Virus record (IMG/VR): IMGVR_UViG_2585427774_000008
Reading direction: 5' to 3' (one strand)
From: a virus
Taxonomy: Duplodnaviria > Heunggongvirae > Uroviricota > Caudoviricetes
Length of the DNA stretch: 41,590 bases
The notes beneath the pieces are model-generated. The model saw only the letters and a program-made list of their open reading frames with translations. It ran no database searches and was not told the DNA's origin. The position numbers were made by a program, and so were the translations under genes. This document shows, one piece after another, positions 2,835 to 17,854 of this stretch (the first letter of the stretch is position 1; each line of letters starts with the position of its first letter).

Positions 2835-5744
2835 TTATGCATGAGTACGCAGCGCTTCAAGGCGGCGCAGGTCGAAGTCGTTCAGTTCGTCGGTGTAGTC
2901 AGCAGTGATTGGCGCTGGCCATTCACCTGTGTCGAATCCGGTTGCGATATTGCGCATCGCTTTGCGGTACTCGAGCATACCCAGCTCCAGTAGTTCAGCG
3001 GATGCCTCGATGATGGCGATCCAGTGGTAGTTCTCGTCTTTGTTGACGAAAATCCAGAAGAACTGATCCAGCGCTGCGGTTTCGCAGTACATAGCCGCGC
3101 TCAGGTGATAATCACGTTCAATAATTTCCCGGTGTAGCCTGGCGCGCAGGCTTTCCTGCTTAACATTCCACATGCTGATGGTTTTCAGGTCAGCACCGAT
3201 ACGCACGCCGTCTAGGTCGATCTCAAGGTCAGGGCGCACACGAACTTCCAGTCCCGTCTCCTCGTCAAAGCCAAAGTAGCTCACCTCAACGGCGCGGCTC
3301 GGGTGGGTTAGCAGCATGCCTGCGGTCGGGTGCGAGAGCAGTGCTGACTGAATTGCCTGCGCGGTGGCAAGTTGCTGGTGGGTAACCAGCACTTTCCCTT
3401 CCGGGTTGTTGCGCCAAGCATCGAGCAGCTCGTCGGCGAACACTGCATCTGGTTTGACTGCCTTCACGGCCTGAATCAGATCGGCCTTCGTGCCAGAGAC
3501 TTTCAGCGGTTGCAGCTTCTGAGCTTCCTGCGCGACCAGGTCAGGATTGATAATCGCAAGTTGTTCGAGTAGTGCGTCGCGGCTGCCGCTGGTTTTAATC
3601 TGCGCTGGCAGGGTGGCGTTGTACTCTTTGATGCACGCCTTCATTGCTGTTGCTGTCTTCTTCTGATCTGCATCGATACGTTGGAATTCAGCTGGCAGCG
3701 CCATATAGTTCTGCGCCGTTTCATCCAGGCTAGCGCCCAGCGGCACCAGCGCTGGCAGGGTGGCGTTGTATTCATCCAGCAAAGCTTTGATATCGTCTGC
3801 GCTCAGTTGCGCTGGCAGGCTGGCGTTGTACTCATCAATAAACGCGCGGATCGTTGCCGTGGTGGTAAATGCACCTTCCGGAATTACGGGTTCAACGCTA
3901 AATTCTTCATCGAGCTGTTCTGGCTGCAACGCCAGCGCATGTACCAGGTTTCCCATGTCCAGCACTGAGGAGCGCTCTTTGACGATGGTTTTCTCAACGT
4001 GGCGCGCATTGAAGTACATCAGCGAAACGCGCGCATCTTTTACCTGGGTGGAACTGATGCCGTTGGCAGCGTGGTAAACCTCGTTCGGCAGACCTTCATA
4101 GCGCCCAGGCTCGAAGTAATCGGGGTAAAAAACAGCTTGTTCGTCAGATTGCGCCTCTGGCTCGACGTGTGCCAAAACTGGTTCAGTCTGGTTTACAGAA
4201 TCGCTATTTTGAGCGACAGATTCCGTATTTTGGTTTACATCGGCCTGCTGGCCGGGATGTGACTCTTCACCAGTTTCCAGACTGCTTTCGCCTGACTGCA
4301 TTTCATTACCAACATTTTTTTCATCACTGACAGTTTCTTGAACCTGCACATTGCTGGTGGTTTCCGTAGCCTGTTTCGTGCCATGAGTTGCTGAGTTCTG
4401 CAGTAAAGCCGTAACATCGAATATTCCGTTGCCGACATTTTTAACCAGTTCTTGTTCGGCTTTATGTGGTTGTGCTGTCGCTTCCTCTGCGCGGCGGCGT
4501 ACTTCTTCTTCACGTACGCGTTGCAGGTTCTCTTCGTGAGTGCAGAAGGGTTTGCGTGGAGACTCCTTACTTTCAGGTTGGGGAATTTCCTGTGTTGCGG
4601 GCTCAGCTTCATGCAATGGCAATAACTCAACAGCAGCATTAAACGCAGCAGTCATGGTCCGGTTAACAAACTCCAGGTGAGCGACAGGAGTTAGATGAAT
4701 ATTTTCCGGCGCGATACGTATCAGGTTAAAAATAGCTGTGCGGTTAACGCCAAGAACGCCGGGTTGATTGCGCAGAATGCTGCTCCATGATTTCCACGGT
4801 TTTTCTTTTTTGGTCACGATTTCTTTAGCGCGACGAAGAATGCTGCCCGGGATCTCGAAGTGGTTGAAGTTCATAGGCAGAAGGGCACATGCAATCTCTA
4901 AATCGAGAGTGTCAAGGGTATGGTATGTATCAGGTCCACGGTCAGTGACGTAACCGCCGTTGGCATTGGTTCCGGAATCAGTACGCTGAACACTACTGAT
5001 GTGATTACCGGCAGCCCATTCACGCGCCAGGATGCCACGGTCAATGTAATCAGTAGCCGCCCACATTCTGGTGAAACGGAGTACCAGCGCGAGTTCGTGA
5101 CGCTTGTCCTGGCTGAACACTTTGCGAATGGCATCGGTGTAGCGCCACAGGTCTTTGGTGTCGTAACCCTTCACTTCCGGGCAGTTCTCAGCAGCTAACA
5201 GCAAGTTCTGGACGTAACTGTTATCAGTGTCCATCTCCAGCGCGCCGATAGCTTCGTACTCTTCGCGGGTTACGTGGTGGCGCAGTTCGTCGGCGGTGAA
5301 CTGGGAAAGCAGTTGCTTACGAAACGGCATCTGCACTACCGGGTAGAGGGTTGAGTCGTCGTCGTGTTCGTCCAGCGTGATGCCAGCGGTTTCTGGCAGC
5401 GTTGACTCAGTAGTTATGTGACTATCAACGGTCTGAGCCGTTTTCTCGTCAGAGTTTTCAGCTGTGACTTTTGGCAGCCAGGTGCGGTCATCGTTCTGCA
5501 GTTCGTAGCGTTCGCACCAGGTGTAATCCACTGCGCCTTCTTCCGGCAGGTCGTCATATACCGGGAAATCGGTGCGGATTGGTTTGGCATAATCTTTACC
5601 GCGGCCAGTTTCTTCAATTCCGGCTTCTTCCAGTGCCACATCGAGTTGGAGATTGGCGCGCGCTACACTTTTCGCAGTGAACCAAATCACTGCATCTTTC
5701 TTGCCAGACTTCTGACTGGCTTTTATCAGATGGAAAAATTCCAT
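2835..5744 (-). CDS. recE: RecE-like exonuclease VIII (C-terminal nuclease domain)
   Basis: 969 aa from ATG at 5744 with AGAGGA SD (ORF track extends to 5849); large protein immediately upstream of recT as in Rac recET; contains internal tandem repeat. Confidence 0.65.
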   Translation of the reverse strand: MEFFHLIKASQKSGKKDAVIWFTAKSVARANLQLDVALEEAGIEETGRGKDYAKPIRTDFPVYDDLPEEGAVDYTWCERYELQNDDRTWLPKVTAENSDEKTAQTVDSHITTESTLPETAGITLDEHDDDSTLYPVVQMPFRKQLLSQFTADELRHHVTREEYEAIGALEMDTDNSYVQNLLLAAENCPEVKGYDTKDLWRYTDAIRKVFSQDKRHELALVLRFTRMWAATDYIDRGILAREWAAGNHISSVQRTDSGTNANGGYVTDRGPDTYHTLDTLDLEIACALLPMNFNHFEIPGSILRRAKEIVTKKEKPWKSWSSILRNQPGVLGVNRTAIFNLIRIAPENIHLTPVAHLEFVNRTMTAAFNAAVELLPLHEAEPATQEIPQPESKESPRKPFCTHEENLQRVREEEVRRRAEEATAQPHKAEQELVKNVGNGIFDVTALLQNSATHGTKQATETTSNVQVQETVSDEKNVGNEMQSGESSLETGEESHPGQQADVNQNTESVAQNSDSVNQTEPVLAHVEPEAQSDEQAVFYPDYFEPGRYEGLPNEVYHAANGISSTQVKDARVSLMYFNARHVEKTIVKERSSVLDMGNLVHALALQPEQLDEEFSVEPVIPEGAFTTTATIRAFIDEYNASLPAQLSADDIKALLDEYNATLPALVPLGASLDETAQNYMALPAEFQRIDADQKKTATAMKACIKEYNATLPAQIKTSGSRDALLEQLAIINPDLVAQEAQKLQPLKVSGTKADLIQAVKAVKPDAVFADELLDAWRNNPEGKVLVTHQQLATAQAIQSALLSHPTAGMLLTHPSRAVEVSYFGFDEETGLEVRVRPDLEIDLDGVRIGADLKTISMWNVKQESLRARLHREIIERDYHLSAAMYCETAALDQFFWIFVNKDENYHWIAIIEASAELLELGMLEYRKAMRNIATGFDTGEWPAPITADYTDELNDFDLRRLEALRTHA
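3600..3835 (-). repeat. Intragenic tandem repeat, three copies of gctggcagg(g/c)tggcgttgta encoding (D/K)EYNA(S/T)LPA
   Basis: Copies seen at 3605-3624, 3751-3770 and 3811-3830 on the + strand; protein repeats DEYNASLPAQL / DEYNATLPALV / KEYNATLPAQI. Confidence 0.7.
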
Positions 5745-6262: not shown

Positions 6263-6505
6263 GATGTTCTCCAGTTTTTCTGAGTGAACTTCGCTGGTGG
6301 TGCCGCGGCGCTGATCTTCACGGTTGAGCGTTTTAACTCTGCAATTCACCACCGCGAAGCTCACTCTGTGCTTTGCCCTTGTCGCCAGGCTGGCGGAACG
6401 TTTCAAACCTACTGCGCGTTAATCTCACCACCTCATTCCGGTCTTCGTATGCCCCGGACGGCTTCTTCGTGGGCGTCCTGCTTTGGTGGTTGTGTTGATG
6501 GAGTA

Positions 6506-6545
6506 ATTAAACACAATGTTTATTTGCGTGTCAACATAATGAGTG
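6506..6545 (-). promoter_or_regulatory. Candidate PL promoter with OL operators
   Basis: On minus strand, consensus -35 TTGACA (plus 6529-6534), 17-nt spacer, -10 TTTAAT (plus 6506-6511); operator-like palindrome taaacacaatgttta (6508-6522) and half-site tcaacataatg (6531-6545) matching OR sites. Confidence 0.5.
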
Positions 6546-6646
6546 TTTTTATATAAACAAAAAGTTTAGTTGGTTGCGCTCGTTGGCACGAGTAGTATGT
6601 TTTGTGGTCTATTTTGTGGTTATAAAAAAATCGATGAGGGTGAGTT

Positions 6647-6853
6647 ATGGATCGTGACGAACTGGAAGAAGACCGCGCAGCGTTTATTGCGGGGGAGATT
6701 GGTGGCGCAGTTGTCAGTCTGATAGCTAACGGGATTGTGATCAGCCGCGATGCGATTGTGGATAGTCTAGAGGCTAAGCGCAGGGTAGTGGGAAACGTCA
6801 TTCACAAGTGGGTATTGCGGGATGCGGCTGCTATGGTGAGAAAAGGGCAATAA
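6647..6853 (+). CDS. Hypothetical small protein
   Basis: 68-aa ORF with GAGGGTGAG SD; followed by hairpin terminator. Confidence 0.45.
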   Translation: MDRDELEEDRAAFIAGEIGGAVVSLIANGIVISRDAIVDSLEAKRRVVGNVIHKWVLRDAAAMVRKGQ

Positions 6854-6889
6854 AAAACCCAGTTCGGTAACTGGGTTATTGCTTTATTC
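6850..6889. terminator. Bidirectional rho-independent terminator
   Basis: Hairpin aacccagt-tcggta-actgggtt (6856-6877); A-run upstream gives a U-tract on the minus strand, T-rich tract downstream on plus; sits between convergent genes. Confidence 0.55.
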
Positions 6890-7342
6890 AACAGATGATG
6901 GGGGGGTCGGTGCTTTCTTAAAGATCGACCACTGAGAAATGTAGGTCAGCAACCTTGAGCTTAACTCGAGTTCTTTTCGTAATATTTCGTCATAACGTTT
7001 TTTTGCTGCTTGCATGGTCGCATCACTAGCGTGATTGTCATCCATAATGATCTTTAGCCTTTTCTTTTCTCGGCTTGAGCATATTGTAAATAACAGACCT
7101 GTAAATGACATTCCACCAAAATCCTTTAACGTTTTGATTACAAAAAGAAGAATCAAAGACAGAAAAGGAACAGATCTGTAGGCCCAATCACGAAACTCAC
7201 CGTCAGGAAAGAAGATAGGAATAGCATCTGTAGCATAACCACATATGAGGGAGACAATTAGAAAAGGTAGTCCATTTTTAGCTACATTTTTAACGTTATC
7301 GTTAGCCATGATTTTTTCCCGAGAACGATTTCGAGTCAACAT
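6884..7342 (-). CDS. Small membrane protein (possible superinfection exclusion SieB-like)
   Basis: 152-aa ORF (141 aa from second ATG); hydrophobic segments LPFLIVSLICGY and VPFLSLILLFVI; located in immunity region downstream of repressor. Confidence 0.45.
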   Translation of the reverse strand: MLTRNRSREKIMANDNVKNVAKNGLPFLIVSLICGYATDAIPIFFPDGEFRDWAYRSVPFLSLILLFVIKTLKDFGGMSFTGLLFTICSSREKKRLKIIMDDNHASDATMQAAKKRYDEILRKELELSSRLLTYISQWSIFKKAPTPPSSVE

Positions 7343-7685
7343 GTAACTTTTGTGTTTTGACTACATAATACGCAAATCCAATCTTAACTAACCAATAAGC
7401 TACTGGTATGAGTGCTGCGTAAAGAGGGATATAGTACATAACCTTACCTCCTGTTAACCACACTATAACACCTAGCATCACTATTAGCGCGACAGAAAAT
7501 GCTTTCAGCCCAACACAGCTATCAGGATGTGAAACACTGTTCCTTAGCAACAATATCTTGGATTCATCAAGTGTGTAAGGAATATCGCCAACATGATTTT
7601 CGATTTTTGGGAAGGTCTCAAATACTTCAACCCGATCAATCGAAATAATTGAGCTTGATTGATGATCTAAGCAAACTGCAGCCAC
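7302..7685 (-). CDS. Hypothetical protein with C-terminal transmembrane segment
   Basis: 127-aa ORF from GTG located 2 nt after upstream stop; an internal ATG at 7439 has a strong AGGAGG SD and would give a 45-aa membrane peptide. Confidence 0.4.
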   Translation of the reverse strand: MAAVCLDHQSSSIISIDRVEVFETFPKIENHVGDIPYTLDESKILLLRNSVSHPDSCVGLKAFSVALIVMLGVIVWLTGGKVMYYIPLYAALIPVAYWLVKIGFAYYVVKTQKLHVDSKSFSGKNHG

Positions 7686-7687
7686 TG

Positions 7688-8011
7688 TTATCCCTCTCGA
7701 ACCTTTAGTGATACTCGGTTAGCAGCAAATGTGGCAATGAAACCACATTCTACACATATAACAGGGAATGCCCATATACCTCGGCCAGCTGAATGAGGTA
7801 GAGGAAGGGTAATTATTGCAGGATAGTCTTGACTATCTTCTCGTGGAGGAACTCCCCAAAGCGTATGCTTACAAAGCGGACAGGCCATCTCGCCATGTTT
7901 TTCTTCGAGGCGTTGAAAATAATCTCCAAATTCTTGTCTTGATATTGATAGCGTCAATGCTGTTGTATTGACACTTTCCTGACTTTTTTCTTCTTCAACC
8001 TGTTCGCCCAT
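7688..8011 (-). CDS. Zinc-ribbon protein, hypothetical
   Basis: 107 aa from ATG at 8011 (track starts at TTG 8023); CPLCKH and CVECG motifs. Confidence 0.5.
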   Translation of the reverse strand: MGEQVEEEKSQESVNTTALTLSISRQEFGDYFQRLEEKHGEMACPLCKHTLWGVPPREDSQDYPAIITLPLPHSAGRGIWAFPVICVECGFIATFAANRVSLKVREG

Positions 8012-8122
8012 CTCAGCTCTCAATATAATGATAATTAACTGGTAAGTGAATTTTGCATATCGTTAAGATGTATCCCATTGGTACAGAAACATCTGAGGGG
8101 TAAGTAGCTTTTAACTACCGTG

Positions 8123-8518
8123 CTACTCACCATCCCCCTTAATCCGCCGTCCCATGTACTTGGCGTACAGTTCATCGAGTTCTTTCAACCGTAGAGATAC
8201 GATCCGCAACATGTTCTGTTGTTCTTCTTCGTTTGGGAGTTGATTATAGAGTTCCAACAGTCTCCGTTCGTCGTGTCTCAAACCGTCCTTAGCATCCACG
8301 TCCTGACCTAGAACCCACTCAAGACTTACGCCTAGCGCATCGGCAAGTTTTATTGCTGAGCTTTTTCCTATCGCTCCTCTGACAAACCAGTTGTTGACTG
8401 ATTGTGCGCTCACACCACAGATTCTCGCTATATCCGCTTTGGATATGCGCTTCTTCTCGATGATTTCATTTAACCGCCGAACCTGCGGGTTATCTGTTTG
8501 GTGTGTGTTTTTTCTCAT
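8123..8518 (-). CDS. HTH (XRE-family) prophage repressor, RacR/CI-like
   Basis: 131-aa ORF; HTH segment ISKADIARICGVSAQSVNNW; divergent from cro-like gene; no SD before ATG (likely leaderless); no S24 peptidase domain evident. Confidence 0.8.
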   Translation of the reverse strand: MRKNTHQTDNPQVRRLNEIIEKKRISKADIARICGVSAQSVNNWFVRGAIGKSSAIKLADALGVSLEWVLGQDVDAKDGLRHDERRLLELYNQLPNEEEQQNMLRIVSLRLKELDELYAKYMGRRIKGDGE

Positions 8519-8526
8519 ATATCAAG

Positions 8527-8594
8527 ATTCTAAACTAAAAGTTTATCGCCTCAACATTCATAATGTTGACTTTAATATAAACATAATGTTTAAT
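8527..8594. promoter_or_regulatory. OR region: divergent PR/PRM-like promoters with two operator palindromes
   Basis: Perfect palindromes TCAACATTCATAATGTTGA (8551-8569) and TAAACATAATGTTTA (8578-8592); plus strand -35 TTGACT (8566-8571) and -10 TTTAAT (8589-8594); minus strand -35 TTGAGG (plus 8549-8554) and -10 TAGAAT (plus 8527-8532) ending about 7 nt before the repressor ATG. Confidence 0.6.
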
Positions 8595-8621
8595 TTGGTT
8601 CGTTATTACTTGGAGCCAAAT

Positions 8622-8855
8622 ATGAAAGCACTTGATAAAGCAATATGCATCGTAGGGGGTGCAACCCGTTTAGCAGAAAAGCTCAATGTATCCCCAATGA
8701 CGGTCAGTCACTGGCGTCACCGTGACAATGGATTCGTACCGGCTAACCGTGTCATTCCTATTTTCAATGCTACAGGTGTAACTCCACATGAGTTACGCCC
8801 TGATTTGTACCTCAACCCTACGGATGGGTTACCAGCTCAGGAAGCGGGGGCATAA
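8622..8855 (+). CDS. Cro-like HTH regulator, YdaS family
   Basis: 77 aa from ATG at 8622 with GGAG SD (ORF track N-terminal extension rejected); MKALDKAI...GGATRLAEKLNVSPMTVSHW resembles YdaS/Cro-like proteins. Confidence 0.75.
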   Translation: MKALDKAICIVGGATRLAEKLNVSPMTVSHWRHRDNGFVPANRVIPIFNATGVTPHELRPDLYLNPTDGLPAQEAGA

Positions 8856-9397: not shown

Positions 9398-9481
9398 CGG
9401 GTTCAAATATGGCGAAAGCCGCGGTGCTCGAACACCAACGGCTTTCAGGTGCAAAAACTGAGCGTAATTGCGGAGAACAGT

Positions 9482-10390
9482 ATGTCAAATACCGCTGAAA
9501 TAATCAATTTCCCAAATAAAACCGAACAACCGGGAGGTCGTATGGCCGACCTGTCGAACGGGTATACCAAGGTCGCTAACGAGATCCAACAGCTTAAGCC
9601 TCGCCTGAGACTGTCAGGCCGGGAATGGCAATGTTTTGAGGCGGTGATCTGGCTTACCTACGGCTGGAACAAGAAACAGGACCGCGTGACAAATACGGTT
9701 ATTGCCGAGCTTACGGGCCTGAGCGATACGCATGTATCGGACGCGCTTAAGTCTCTCGCAGAACGCAAAATCATCTTTTCACAGAAGCAGGGCATGATGA
9801 AAATCGTCGGTGTAAACACTGACCTTTCAGCATGGATTTTAGACAAACCGGAAACGGGAAGAAAATTCCCGAAAACGGGAAAATCCTTCCCGAAATCAGG
9901 AATAACCTTCCCGAAAACGGTAGACACCCAATACAAGAACAAGAACAGTATTAAAAGATCTTCGTCCGAGAATTCTGACGAATCCTCTGACGCACGTCTG
10001 AAGAAATTTTTATCAACTCATCCTGAAGCTGCGGTCTACACACCATCCGGTGCGAAGTGGGGCTCTGCTGAAGACCTCGAGACAGCTAAGTGGATTTCCT
10101 CCAGGGTGAAGCTGATTAACCCAACCTGCAAAGCCCCGGACATGACCTCCTGGTCTAACACTGTTCGCCTGATGCGCCAGATAGACGACCGGTCGCACCA
10201 GGACATCTGCGCGCTGTATGACTGGGCTAGCAAACACCACTTCTGGCAGACCAACATCCTGAGTCCCGAAAGCCTGCGTAAGCAGTGGGACAAGCTGACA
10301 ATGCAGCGTAACGCCGGAGGTGAGCAGCGCGCTGTCAAGCCAGATCTGGACTTCAACAACACTGACTGGGCCTATGGGGTGATCCGATGA
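9482..10390 (+). CDS. Replication initiation protein, lambda O-like
   Basis: 302 aa from ATG at 9482 with GGAGA SD; N-terminal replisome-organiser-like region (LSGREWQCFEAVIWLTYGW...AELTGLSDTHVSDALKSL); contains iterons. Confidence 0.8.
   Translation: MSNTAEIINFPNKTEQPGGRMADLSNGYTKVANEIQQLKPRLRLSGREWQCFEAVIWLTYGWNKKQDRVTNTVIAELTGLSDTHVSDALKSLAERKIIFSQKQGMMKIVGVNTDLSAWILDKPETGRKFPKTGKSFPKSGITFPKTVDTQYKNKNSIKRSSSENSDESSDARLKKFLSTHPEAAVYTPSGAKWGSAEDLETAKWISSRVKLINPTCKAPDMTSWSNTVRLMRQIDDRSHQDICALYDWASKHHFWQTNILSPESLRKQWDKLTMQRNAGGEQRAVKPDLDFNNTDWAYGVIR
9846..9923 (+). repeat. Iterons (candidate replication origin) inside O-like gene
   Basis: Four direct repeats of (t/a)cccgaaa(a/t)c(g/a)gg starting at 9846, 9867, 9888, 9909 with exact 21-bp spacing, followed by A-rich tract; encodes FPKTG/FPKSG peptide repeats. 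Confidence 0.65.
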
Positions 10391-12051: not shown

Positions 12052-12285
12052 ATGAAAGTTGAATTAACCATTGATCGCATGAAAGAACTTCCTAAAGGCG
12101 CAGTACCAGCACTGGAGAAAGAACTGCTTAAGCGCCTGAATGATCACTATGACAATTGCAGGCTCACAATCCGCCGTGCCGGGGCCGATGGGTTAAGTGT
12201 TTTTGGTGGTGACAAGGACGATAAAAAGAAAATTGAATCAATCCTCCAGGATACCTGGGAAAGCGCTGACGACTGGTTTTATTAG
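12052..12285 (+). CDS. dinI: DinI-family protein
   Basis: 77 aa from ATG at 12052; MKVELTIDRMKELPKGA...ILQDTWESADDWF closely resembles E. coli DinI as recalled. Confidence 0.85.
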   Translation: MKVELTIDRMKELPKGAVPALEKELLKRLNDHYDNCRLTIRRAGADGLSVFGGDKDDKKKIESILQDTWESADDWFY

Positions 12286-12402
12286 AATTGCGCTTAAGGC
12301 TGGCGCGCATTTTTCAGAATACCGCAATTTGCGTAACCCTCTGATGCTGCTGCCGACAATCTTTAATCGCGTCTGTTAGTCGCTCGAAGGGAGAACATAA
12401 AT

Positions 12403-12651
12403 GTGAGTGATTCAGCTTTGCAAACGTCAGAAGACAACTGGTATGACATTGTAAGAAGGTCTGACGGCTGCGTGGTGTTTAGCTTTCCTTCATCGGGCAG
12501 GCATCTAATTTATCGCGTCAATGGCATGGTTTCTATGCGGCCTTTGCTGGATGATGAAGAGGTCTTTACTCCTAATGGTTTTATGCAGTTTATTCACCGT
12601 CTCGGCTACCGGGTAACCCCACCTTCTGATAATATGAAATCAACGGTCTGA
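12403..12651 (+). CDS. Hypothetical protein
   Basis: 82-aa ORF from GTG with AGGGAG SD. Confidence 0.4.
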   Translation: MSDSALQTSEDNWYDIVRRSDGCVVFSFPSSGRHLIYRVNGMVSMRPLLDDEEVFTPNGFMQFIHRLGYRVTPPSDNMKSTV

Positions 12652-12685
12652 ACAACCGTAACCTACTGCGCCACGGAGAGAAACC

Positions 12686-13285
12686 ATGGCGCACGAACTA
12701 CAACTCATCAAGCATTCCTCAGGAATCCTGATCCCCGCTACGCCGGAGACCAGTGATTTACTGCAATCAAAAATCAAACTCGGCTCCGTACTGGTGGCTG
12801 AGTTCCGGCAGGTACGCAACCCGGCCTTTCACCGTCGTTTCTTCGCGTTACTCAATCTCGGTTTCGAATACTGGGAACCCACCGGCGGGGCAATCTCCTC
12901 CAACGAACGCAAGCTGGTAACCGGCTATGCCAAGTTCCTTGCCTCATTCGCGGGAAGTGAAGCAGCACTCCTGGATGCTGCTGAGCAATATCTGGACCGC
13001 ATCGCCGATAAGCGTACTGGTAGCATCTGCGCCTGTAAGTCATTCGATGCATATCGTGCATGGGTCACTATTGAGTCCGGCCATTACGACGCCATTCAGC
13101 TGCCTGACGGCACCCTCCGCAAACATCCCCGCAGTATCTCATTCGCAAATATGGATGAAACTGAGTTCCAGCAGCTGTACAAAGCCGCGCTCGATGTTCT
13201 GTGGCGATGGATACTCTCCCGATCATTTCGCAGTTGTGAAGAGGCAGAAAACGCCGCCGCCCAGCTGATGAGCTTTGCGGGGTGA
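12686..13285 (+). CDS. Hypothetical nin-region protein
   Basis: 199-aa ORF with AGAGA SD-like sequence; typical position between replication genes and rusA. Confidence 0.55.
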   Translation: MAHELQLIKHSSGILIPATPETSDLLQSKIKLGSVLVAEFRQVRNPAFHRRFFALLNLGFEYWEPTGGAISSNERKLVTGYAKFLASFAGSEAALLDAAEQYLDRIADKRTGSICACKSFDAYRAWVTIESGHYDAIQLPDGTLRKHPRSISFANMDETEFQQLYKAALDVLWRWILSRSFRSCEEAENAAAQLMSFAG

Positions 13286-16583: not shown

Positions 16584-16851
16584 CCCGACAGCAACTATAA
16601 ACGCGCTGTTATGTGCTTGTGTTGTTATTACTCTGATGTTTTATCGTCGTGGTGATTCGCGGCATCGTCCTTGGGTTTCACGTTTAGCCTGGCTGATTAC
16701 TGTTACATACAGTGCTGTTCCGTTGGCCTATCTCTGTGGGATTTATCCCCATTCCTCATGGCCCATTATCGTGGCGAATACTATTTTTCTTTCCGTGCTG
16801 GTGGCCGTCAGAGGCAACGTTGCACGCCTGGTTGATCATCTGAGGCACTAA
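16570..16851 (+). CDS. Second holin-like membrane protein
   Basis: 93-aa ORF from GTG with GGGGAGG SD; two to three hydrophobic segments; overlaps neighbours. Confidence 0.5.
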   Translation: MELNDPTATINALLCACVVITLMFYRRGDSRHRPWVSRLAWLITVTYSAVPLAYLCGIYPHSSWPIIVANTIFLSVLVAVRGNVARLVDHLRH

Positions 16852-17465
16852 TGAACCAACAATTATTTCAAAAGGCGGCTGGTATCAGCGCCGGACTGGC
16901 TGTGCGCTGGTTTCAACCAGTAGATGCAGCGATGAAAGAATTCGGCATTACAGCACCCGCGGATCAGGCCATGTTCATCGCTCAGGTAGGTCATGAGTCA
17001 GGCGGCTTTAGCGCTGTAGTTGAAAATTTGAACTACACACCATCTGCGCTGGTGGCGACCTTCGGAAAGAGGATCACACAGCAGCAGGCTGATGCGCTTG
17101 GCAGAACAACCGAACACGCAGCCCGCCAGGATGCTATCGCCAATCTGGTGTATAGCAACCGCCTGGGTAACAAAGCGCCCGGCGACGGCTGGAAATATCG
17201 CGGCAGAGGGTTAATTCAAATCACTGGCCTCGACAATTATCGCACCTGCGGGGCGGCGTTGAAGTTAGACCTCGTTACTTCACCTGAACAGCTCGAACAG
17301 GAACTTCAGGCAGCACGCTCTGCCGCCTGGTTCTACACATCCAAAGGGTGCATGGCCTACGGTGCCGATATTACTCGTGTTACGCGCATCATTAACGGCG
17401 GCCTGAATGGCATTGATGACCGCAAAATCCGCTACAACAAAGCGCGGGCGGCGCTGCTGGTATGA
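16851..17465 (+). CDS. Endolysin, glycoside hydrolase family 19 (chitinase-like)
   Basis: 204-aa ORF; GH19-type motifs AQVGHESGGF, NLNY, GRGLIQITGLDNY. Confidence 0.85.
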   Translation: MNQQLFQKAAGISAGLAVRWFQPVDAAMKEFGITAPADQAMFIAQVGHESGGFSAVVENLNYTPSALVATFGKRITQQQADALGRTTEHAARQDAIANLVYSNRLGNKAPGDGWKYRGRGLIQITGLDNYRTCGAALKLDLVTSPEQLEQELQAARSAAWFYTSKGCMAYGADITRVTRIINGGLNGIDDRKIRYNKARAALLV

Positions 17466-17854
17466 AAATGAGTTATTGGGTGCTCATTGTGACGTTTATC
17501 GCCTGTATTGCAGGCGGTCTTGTCTGGTCAGCGGATCACTACCATGGAAAATTTCTGGAGGAACAGCGTCGCGCTGACGATGCAGAACAGCGTGCTGATT
17601 CCTCTGAGACCATCACCGCGAATGTCCTGCGCACCGTAGCAATAACGAACATCATTCTGGAGACAAACCAACATGCTAAGCAGCAGATCGCACTGGAGTC
17701 ACAGAGAGCCGAGAACGATATCAAAGCTGCTGTTGCGGATGATGATTGTGCTGTTCGTGTTGTGCCTGCTGGCGCAGTTAAGCGGCTGCACGAATACGCG
17801 AACGGTCTACGTGCCGGTTCCGGTAGTTCCATTACCAGCCAGCCTGACGGCTGA
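17462..17854 (+). CDS. Rz-like inner-membrane spanin
   Basis: 130-aa ORF, N-terminal TM helix (YWVLIVTFIACIAGGLVW) then charged coiled-coil-like region. Confidence 0.7.
   Translation: MKMSYWVLIVTFIACIAGGLVWSADHYHGKFLEEQRRADDAEQRADSSETITANVLRTVAITNIILETNQHAKQQIALESQRAENDIKAAVADDDCAVRVVPAGAVKRLHEYANGLRAGSGSSITSQPDG

Follow-up and report, generated by a model that had tools for sequence, protein, structure and literature searches.

A three-gene module swapped in behind the repressor of a Rac-like Escherichia coli prophage is a candidate membrane-based phage-exclusion system

What does a temperate phage carry directly behind its repressor gene, and what might those genes do in the lysogen? Few parts of a lysogen are expressed as strongly as the interval behind its prophage repressor, which has already yielded RexAB and BstA. 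We analyzed this interval in IMG/VR virus record IMGVR_UViG_2585427774_000008 (Caudoviricetes), a stretch of 41,590 nucleotides that we call the window. Three translationally coupled genes, here named A, B, and C, lie there on the minus (repressor) strand directly 3' of the repressor gene. They form a horizontally swapped, AT-rich module at the repressor-N/PL hotspot, and the same intact A-B-C set recurs behind unrelated repressors without known homologues of its proteins.

The initial annotation had placed three open reading frames (ORFs) on the repressor strand between the left operator (OL) and the repressor, and their existence is borne out by RefSeq/PGAP (Prokaryotic Genome Annotation Pipeline), which calls A, B, and C identically in a 99.8% identical E. 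coli prophage. Gene A (7688–8011) starts at ATG 8011 and encodes 107 amino acids (aa), as first annotated; position 8023 is just the upstream TTG of its mechanical ORF. Three nucleotides separate the stop codon of A from the start of gene B (7302–7685; 127 aa), a GTG preceded by a GAGGGA Shine–Dalgarno sequence. The stop codon of B overlaps the ATG of gene C (6884–7309; 141 aa) in ATGGCTAA. For gene C the earlier model had to be revised: it had been started at 7342 to give 152 aa, but all 15 homologues begin with MAND or MPND at the equivalent of 7309 and are 140–145 aa long, so the longer reading is wrong.

Comparison with the sibling prophage L002, whose flanks are 96–98% identical to those in the window, defines the edges of the module. 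Homology ends at 6860 and resumes at 8124, which in this comparison is the first base past the repressor stop codon. The swapped module thus spans 6861–8123 on the minus strand and comprises a leader, A, B, C, and a terminator. Its GC content is 39.7%, compared with 52.4% in the rest of the window; among 807 sliding windows of equal length, no other is as low. The AT-richness noted by eye at the outset is therefore confirmed. The module is closed, as had been proposed, by a minus-strand hairpin with a U-tract. This intrinsic terminator (6849–6877, minus strand) has a 9-bp GC-containing stem, AACCCAGTT/AACTGGGTT, followed by UUUUUAUU. The stem (6877–6856) and minus-strand U-tract fold with −17.3 kcal/mol (z = −3.9), and none of 200 shuffled sequences folds as well. 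A discrete insertion, a deviant GC content, a terminator of its own, and unrelated replacements in near-identical phages together identify the cassette as mosaic accessory ("moron") cargo.

The replacements are found in sibling E. coli prophages that have a 97–98% identical repressor and carry other cargo in exactly the cassette interval. At least three alternative cargos occur behind this same repressor. L002 encodes a 149-aa soluble protein and a 136-aa coiled-coil protein with a C-terminal transmembrane (TM) segment (4479–5341), and L003 and L022 encode a 101-aa protein and a 217-aa coiled-coil/TM/PA-repeat protein (4472–5436 in L003). In L021, from E. coli WEM25, the interval holds YoaK, HicA/HicB, and a 141-aa protein (3065–4454); this is the only sibling with HicAB in the slot. 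We regard these cargos as further candidate accessory systems. One of the two soluble and membrane coiled-coil pairs gives weak, sub-threshold XhlA/SlyX-like matches, and an (AP)n repeat forms the tail of the other. A small membrane ORF of the YoaK family (32 aa) directly follows the repressor both in Cedecea L006 (5648–5746), ahead of A-B-C, and in L021 (4356–4454), ahead of hicAB; it is a second recurrent small gene of the repressor-adjacent slot. The cI–N interval of lambdoid phages is a known mosaic hotspot, occupied by rexAB in lambda and bstA in BTP1, and its genes are thought to use the repressor promoter (PMC8585504).

We found few homologues of A, B, and C, all of them in Enterobacteriaceae, namely, E. 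coli, Klebsiella, Kluyvera, Enterobacter, and Cedecea. By tblastn, all 21 loci that carry any one of the three genes carry A-B-C intact and in this order. The upstream neighbor is always a prophage repressor, of at least two unrelated types: a short DicA-like helix-turn-helix (HTH) repressor in the window, PHB10, L011–14, and L034–36, and a cI-type HTH+S24 repressor in lambda-like Klebsiella and Cedecea prophages. The latter carriers have cII, cIII, kil, gam, and different replication modules. Comparison with the Klebsiella, Cedecea, and PHB10 copies gives nonsynonymous divergence (pN) of 0.18–0.34 for the three genes together, against synonymous divergence (pS) of 0.64–0.85, with pS saturated. 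For B the values are 0.20–0.33 and 0.64–0.74, and for C they are 0.18–0.22 and 0.78–0.85. Since pN is far below pS, all three genes are under purifying selection. In L007 and L010, both from Klebsiella, gene callers list only a 106-aa S24 repressor fragment (about 5276–5596) and miss gene C, which tblastn finds intact; these cases are either annotation gaps or a disrupted repressor N-terminus.

The three products are one cytoplasmic and two membrane proteins. Protein A is an acidic Zn-ribbon protein, as had been proposed, with cysteines in CPLC (residues 44–47) and CVEC (residues 86–89). All four cysteines of this CxxC...CxxC pattern are invariant in 38 representatives of the family, and P70 and W80 are nearly so. 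Its AlphaFold2 (AF2) model consists of two N-terminal helices and a beta ribbon, with a predicted local distance difference test score (pLDDT) of 74. Protein B begins with an acidic segment of about 56 aa that carries the invariant motif P-K-I-E-N-x-x-G-D-I-P-Y. The C-terminal TM region reported earlier for B is present, but it is not a single helix: AF2 shows a hairpin of helices 57–77 and 82–115 joined by a conserved GGKVMYYIPLY turn and followed by a basic tail, of which a hydropathy scan brings only the first helix (57–77) above threshold. The TM hairpin is the only defined part of this model (pLDDT 56). Protein C has two clear TM segments (about 14–34 and 42–61) and a short third hydrophobic stretch (67–78), with conserved CGYAT, WAYR, and DFGGMSF motifs. 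It ends in a basic, partly amphipathic helical domain with a conserved PTPP tail. From the positive-inside rule and the basic tails and loops, we infer that both B and C expose their soluble parts to the cytoplasm, where Zn-binding A must be.

Could these proteins nonetheless be distant members of a known system? In scans of A, B, and C against Pfam, NCBIfam, and PADLOC, no match came close to the curated cut-offs, and at E <= 1 the Pfam matches are only unrelated sub-threshold ones, with no SieB or Imm family among them. Neither BstA homology, examined with Pfam and PADLOC, nor toxin or antitoxin family homology, examined with Pfam, NCBIfam, and PADLOC, was detected for the three proteins. 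Aligned with hhalign to lambda RexA, the A profile reached a probability of 0.07%; against lambda RexB, the C and B profiles reached 0.7% and 0.2%, respectively. A family-profile search against all PDB chain sequences and a fold search with the A model returned no match and no significant match, respectively. The impression that none of the three is recognizably RexA, RexB, or a known defense protein thus withstands these comparisons, and we found no confident homology of A, B, or C to any characterized family. Judged by sequence homology, the cassette belongs with none of RexA, RexB, BstA, SieB/Imm, or the known toxin–antitoxin (TA) families. It is an uncharacterized protein set in a known type of locus.

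The sole real family match of the cassette is that of A to phrog_4293 (6.3e-7), a phrog to which no function is assigned. Beyond this, a profile search with A through the full library of about 1.8 billion cluster representatives returned 44 proteins at E <= 0.001, almost all of about 100 aa. The two long exceptions, a plant multicystatin and an Ig-repeat protein, are repeat-summed artifacts. The wider family, which comprises about 40 clusters, has a consistent signature of about 100 aa, CxxC...CxxC, a PLP motif, and a G-x-G-x-W motif. Most of its members are acidic (pI below 7 in 29 of 38), and the acidity of A makes protein a more likely ligand than DNA. An A-family gene occurs in 3 of the 50,697 phage records, and the A-profile scan of a one-genome-per-species collection found no member of the close family.

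Family members lie downstream of a phage repressor, usually directly, in nine of ten lineages; the context of the tenth, L027, is ambiguous. Among eight distant members looked up, seven (P0039, P0040, P0042, P0044, P0045, P0050, and one from a Yersinia phage) follow a repressor that has an HTH only or HTH+S24, the eighth being P0074 of L027. One or two small genes come after each of these seven, and nearly all of their products have a TM segment. In L023, cI and N immediately flank the distant A gene and its partner. A single family of 139–176 aa accounts for five of the partner proteins; its members combine an acidic N-terminus, which bears an ENQDG motif, with one TM segment and a coiled coil. 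The PKIENxxGD motif at the N-terminus of B aligns with this ENQDG motif (hhalign E 3.4e-4, probability 38%, 25 columns). We had also considered the partners in L015 as true homologues of B and C on the strength of a PFFPD motif; hhalign gave no support, so their likeness to B and C is only one of architecture. In two loci a lipoprotein gene with an LTGC or LSGC lipobox lies directly upstream of the A-like gene (L017, 3397–3969; L027, 2356–2901), and in L017 it stands between the cI repressor and the A-like gene.

How would the cassette be expressed? The repressor gene (8123–8518, minus strand), which lies outside the swapped module, encodes a short DicA/CI-HTH-like protein of 131 aa and is the upstream gene of the presumed operon that contains the cassette. 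It matches Pfam HTH_3 (2.9e-8) and Phage_CI_repr (1.6e-5) and the phrog_8 transcriptional regulators (2.6e-19). Its score against the NCBIfam RacR equivalog, 12.7 bits with a cut-off of 200, shows that it is distinct from RacR. A consensus scan places a putative PRM-like promoter (TTGAGG-16-TAGAAT) at 8527–8554 on the minus strand, overlapping the operator copy at 8531–8545. The end of its −10 element and the repressor ATG (8518) are 8 nt apart, so the repressor mRNA would be leaderless or nearly so. The lambda cI mRNA from PRM is likewise leaderless or nearly so.

Between the repressor stop codon and gene A lies a cassette-specific leader (8012–8122, minus strand) in which we found no intrinsic terminator. 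None of four contexts (the window, PHB10, Klebsiella, and Cedecea) has a terminator-like site between the repressor and A, and a strong terminator follows C in three of the four, with equivalents of the one described above in PHB10 and the Cedecea prophage. A separate 10-bp hairpin (8092–8135, minus strand; folding z-score −1.5, no U-tract) spans the repressor stop codon; the 5' arm belongs to the conserved repressor sequence, the 3' arm to the DNA specific to the cassette. Attenuation and RNA stabilization are conceivable roles, but the hairpin may also have arisen by chance.

Operator sequences bracket both repressor and cassette. A repeat search found four copies of a 15-nt palindrome, TAAAC-N5-GTTTA, two in OL (6508–6568; palindromes 6508–6522 and 6554–6568) and two in the right operator OR (8531–8592; palindromes 8531–8545 and 8578–8592), and an AACATTRTG motif is confined to OL and OR. 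This supports the earlier placement of OL on the side of the cassette away from the repressor and puts both repressor and cassette within the immunity region. The PL-like promoter in OL, read from the sequence as TTGACA-17-TTTAAT at about 6535–6507 on the minus strand, points toward kilR. The cassette had been described as holding a rexAB/sieB-equivalent position. The first half of that description fits a gene set directly behind the repressor inside the immunity region, but the sieB slot is a different position on the plus strand, held in the window by a 68-aa ORF. By locus comparison, the cassette itself occupies the ydaG-ydaF slot of K-12 Rac.

Taking these features together, we tentatively favor, as plausible if somewhat short of probable, a lysogen-expressed, membrane-based phage-exclusion system with Rex-like logic, carried as a distal accessory module of the repressor operon. 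Transcription would run from the PRM-like promoter through the repressor into A, B, and C and stop at the terminator at 6849–6877. Tight translational coupling would then yield a complex in which the cytoplasmic Zn-ribbon protein A and its inner-membrane partners B and C are present in fixed proportion. We count the gene coupling, the co-inheritance of the three genes in 21 of 21 loci, and a pN far below pS as signs of such a complex. The docking site for A may be the conserved IENxxGD segment at the cytoplasmic N-terminus of B. A cytoplasmic infection cue would change the state of the complex, and because A is acidic this cue is more likely a phage protein than DNA. In response, B and C might disrupt the integrity of the inner membrane or obstruct DNA entry from the cytoplasmic side, so that the superinfecting phage is aborted.

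A broader proposal, which we consider rather doubtful, is that A marks a hitherto unrecognized family of systems that temperate phages of Enterobacteriaceae, Yersinia, and Pseudomonas carry in linkage with their repressors. Here A would be a conserved cytoplasmic sensor or adaptor that docks on the IENxxG motif of interchangeable membrane effectors, and the systems would constitute a new, Rex-unrelated modular class of abortive infection or exclusion. The effector would take the form of a single-pass TM/coiled-coil protein in two-gene units or of the B and C pair in three-gene units.

Several observations weigh against phage exclusion driven by the repressor promoter. In K-12 Rac, ydaF and ydaG rise about 40-fold as racR expression drops (PMC6765115), and ydaFG has been described as an operon of its own next to racR (PMC11014345). 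In Rac-type phages, a transcript shared with the repressor can therefore not be taken for granted, and by analogy genes at the cassette position may be derepressed rather than lysogen-expressed. A weak promoter-like site (8050–8022, minus strand; 9 of 12 matches) also closely precedes A. On the other side, in favor of the repressor operon, the homologous cassettes do not share this site; their repressor–A intergenic regions do not align, and our search of those cassettes found no conserved internal promoter ahead of A. AF2 does not fold the N-terminal domain of B, the proposed docking site (pLDDT below 50), and the match of this domain to the partner motif is short and of 38% probability. In the Yersinia phage, the two proteins that follow the relative of A are non-membrane proteins, so a membrane partner is not an absolute requirement for A. 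PADLOC found no match in the cassette, and the accessions of its proteins do not occur in the literature searched. Finally, the cassette and the A family are found only in prophage immunity regions and never in defense islands, so a role in the phage's own lysogeny control would fit this distribution equally well.

Such a control role is one of four alternatives that we weighed. A could bind the repressor, Cro/YdaS, or another regulator, with B and C tethering or releasing it at the membrane and thereby tuning induction or re-establishment. The family's position behind a repressor of any type in nine of ten lineages, never in another context, speaks for this, as do the acidity of A, more likely a protein binder than a DNA binder, and the interaction of RexA with CI and Cro, which biases the lambda CI-Cro switch (PMC11077077). 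However, siblings with a nearly identical repressor and switch carry unrelated cargo instead of the cassette, so the cassette is dispensable for the switch. Its occurrence behind unrelated repressors, both S24-type and short HTH, argues against a specific repressor contact, and it is rare among E. coli genomes (5 of 5426 complete genomes). We therefore judge this role distinctly unlikely. Exclusion of the superinfection exclusion (Sie) type, in which B and/or C block genome translocation in the manner of P22 SieA, T4 Imm, or HK97 gp15 and A is an assembly or stability factor, seems to us unlikely. Known Sie proteins are small, prophage-encoded membrane proteins (PMC10883804), and B and C are likewise small inner-membrane proteins with conserved motifs (GGKVMYYIPLY and DFGGMSF) at a lysogen-linked position. 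Yet their periplasmic exposure is minimal, with nearly all of the soluble mass predicted to be cytoplasmic. Known Sie proteins also act alone, whereas here three genes, including one for a cytoplasmic Zn-ribbon protein, are strictly co-inherited, and there is no Pfam match to the SieB or Imm families.

The remaining two alternatives are very improbable in our estimate. One is TA-like addiction, in which one or both membrane proteins would be membrane-damaging toxins held in check by A, an arrangement that would stabilize the prophage and could trigger when expression is lost. The presence of the HicA/HicB pair in exactly the same slot of a sibling prophage fits this idea, and so do three small, hydrophobic, tightly coupled genes that are strictly co-inherited. 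Similarity to any known TA family is absent, however, and the order and sizes are atypical, with a 107-aa candidate antitoxin encoded first and two membrane proteins larger than type I toxins. Addiction of this kind also overlaps with abortive infection instead of excluding it. The other, with an equally low probability, is lysogenic-conversion cargo unrelated to phages, such as a membrane stress, transport, or envelope function that benefits the host from a highly expressed slot. A moron-like, AT-rich insertion with its own terminator, encoding proteins of no informative homology, is what such cargo would look like, but the proteins contain no enzymatic or transporter domain. Moreover, the A family occurs only in phage immunity regions; it is missing from the one-genome-per-species collection and present in just 3 of 50,697 phage records.

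The surroundings of the cassette are those of a complete-looking Rac-like E. coli prophage, with the integrase at position 1 of the window followed by recT/recE, ydaE, kilR, the immunity region, ydaS/ydaT-like genes, replication O/P-like genes, and structural genes. The 2.2-kb stretch around the cassette recurs at 99.7–99.8% identity in chromosomal prophages adjoining kch in 5 of 5426 complete E. coli genomes; as such, it is found in none of the 50,697 phage records. Two carriers, E. coli EC17CM13 and EcE.CRE.COL, have the cassette at 99.8% identity. In EC17CM13 (L001; 99.8% identical prophage), PGAP annotates the replication protein and antitermination protein genes as pseudogenes with internal stops (12083–12991 and 16837–17646), so some carriers of the cassette are probably defective prophages. 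The replication ORF is intact in the window (9449–10390).

The 68-aa ORF mentioned above (6647–6853, plus strand), absent from the initial annotation, lies between OL and the cassette and outside the swapped module. It converges with the cassette on a common hairpin. It matches phrog_3975 (9.6e-35), to which no function is assigned, and it is annotated in L001, L002, L003, and L021, being kept in siblings whatever cassette they carry. By locus comparison it holds the slot of sieB in K-12 Rac; a comparison with Rac SieB found no similarity. The operator copy at 6554–6568 is about 80 nt upstream, so the ORF may be repressor-controlled. Farther along, a segment of about 120 nt downstream of PL and upstream of kilR (6372–6491) is kept at 81% identity in PHB10 and L011, where the neighboring DNA is not. 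It shows no similarity to the kilS small RNA, which occupies the same place in K-12 Rac, and an Rfam scan of 6300–8800 gave nothing above threshold.

The cassette is a compact, cleanly delimited, conserved three-gene unit without known relatives. Through gene A it is connected with a larger collection of two-gene units that many temperate phages carry at the corresponding position. Should the cassette prove to exclude phages, it would provide a new protein family for prophage-encoded immunity. It would also be a small, tractable model (about 1.2 kb, proteins of 107–141 aa) for the coupling of a cytoplasmic sensor to a membrane effector. To our knowledge, this coupling is still unresolved for Rex after 60 years. 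If the proteins instead tune the phage's own switch, they would represent a new class of regulator common to cI-type and Rac-type immunity regions. On the sequence evidence we regard the cassette as a reasonable candidate exclusion system, a candidacy strengthened by the way gene A marks wider repressor-linked units.

How does this candidate compare with systems already known? At its position in K-12 Rac, ydaG-ydaF occupies the same slot on the repressor strand, between the repressor and the plus-strand gene next to kilR. By size and architecture, the only features compared, YdaG (44 aa) and YdaF (51 aa) are much smaller and differently built. P22 SieA, T4 Imm, and HK97 gp15 are, like B and C, small prophage- or phage-encoded inner-membrane proteins, and they protect against incoming phages (PMC10883804). 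They are single-gene systems, whereas the cassette adds a conserved cytoplasmic Zn-ribbon partner. BstA of Salmonella BTP1 and relatives is encoded downstream of the prophage repressor in diverse phages, presumably with a common promoter, and is a precedent for abortive-infection genes in the repressor-adjacent slot (PMC8585504). It differs in being a single soluble protein that localizes to phage replication sites and in having an aba self-immunity DNA element; no counterpart of aba came to light in the window, although no search aimed at one was made.

The closest parallels in organization are Rex and Rex-like pairs. Lambda Rex is characterized by exclusion of T4 rII or other phages, accompanied by a loss of membrane potential. 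The mycobacteriophage pairs (Butters gp30/gp31, Sbash, and CarolAnn) combine a cytoplasmic protein with a multi-pass membrane protein and mediate heterotypic exclusion (PMC7542560; cited in PMC11077077). Compared by description only, they differ in host phylum, in having two genes, and in lacking a Zn-ribbon. In lambda, soluble RexA and the 4-TM protein RexB are transcribed from PRM with cI (PMC11077077). Like the cassette, rexAB lies right behind the repressor, on the repressor strand of the immunity region and ahead of OL, and the gene for a soluble cytoplasmic protein precedes that for the inner-membrane protein (PMC11077077). The likeness does not extend to the proteins themselves: lambda has two genes where the cassette has three, RexA is a 31-kDa (about 279 aa), RdgC-like, two-domain DNA-binding dimer in contrast to the 12-kDa Zn-ribbon protein A, and RexB has 144 aa and four TM segments, whereas B has two and C has two or three.

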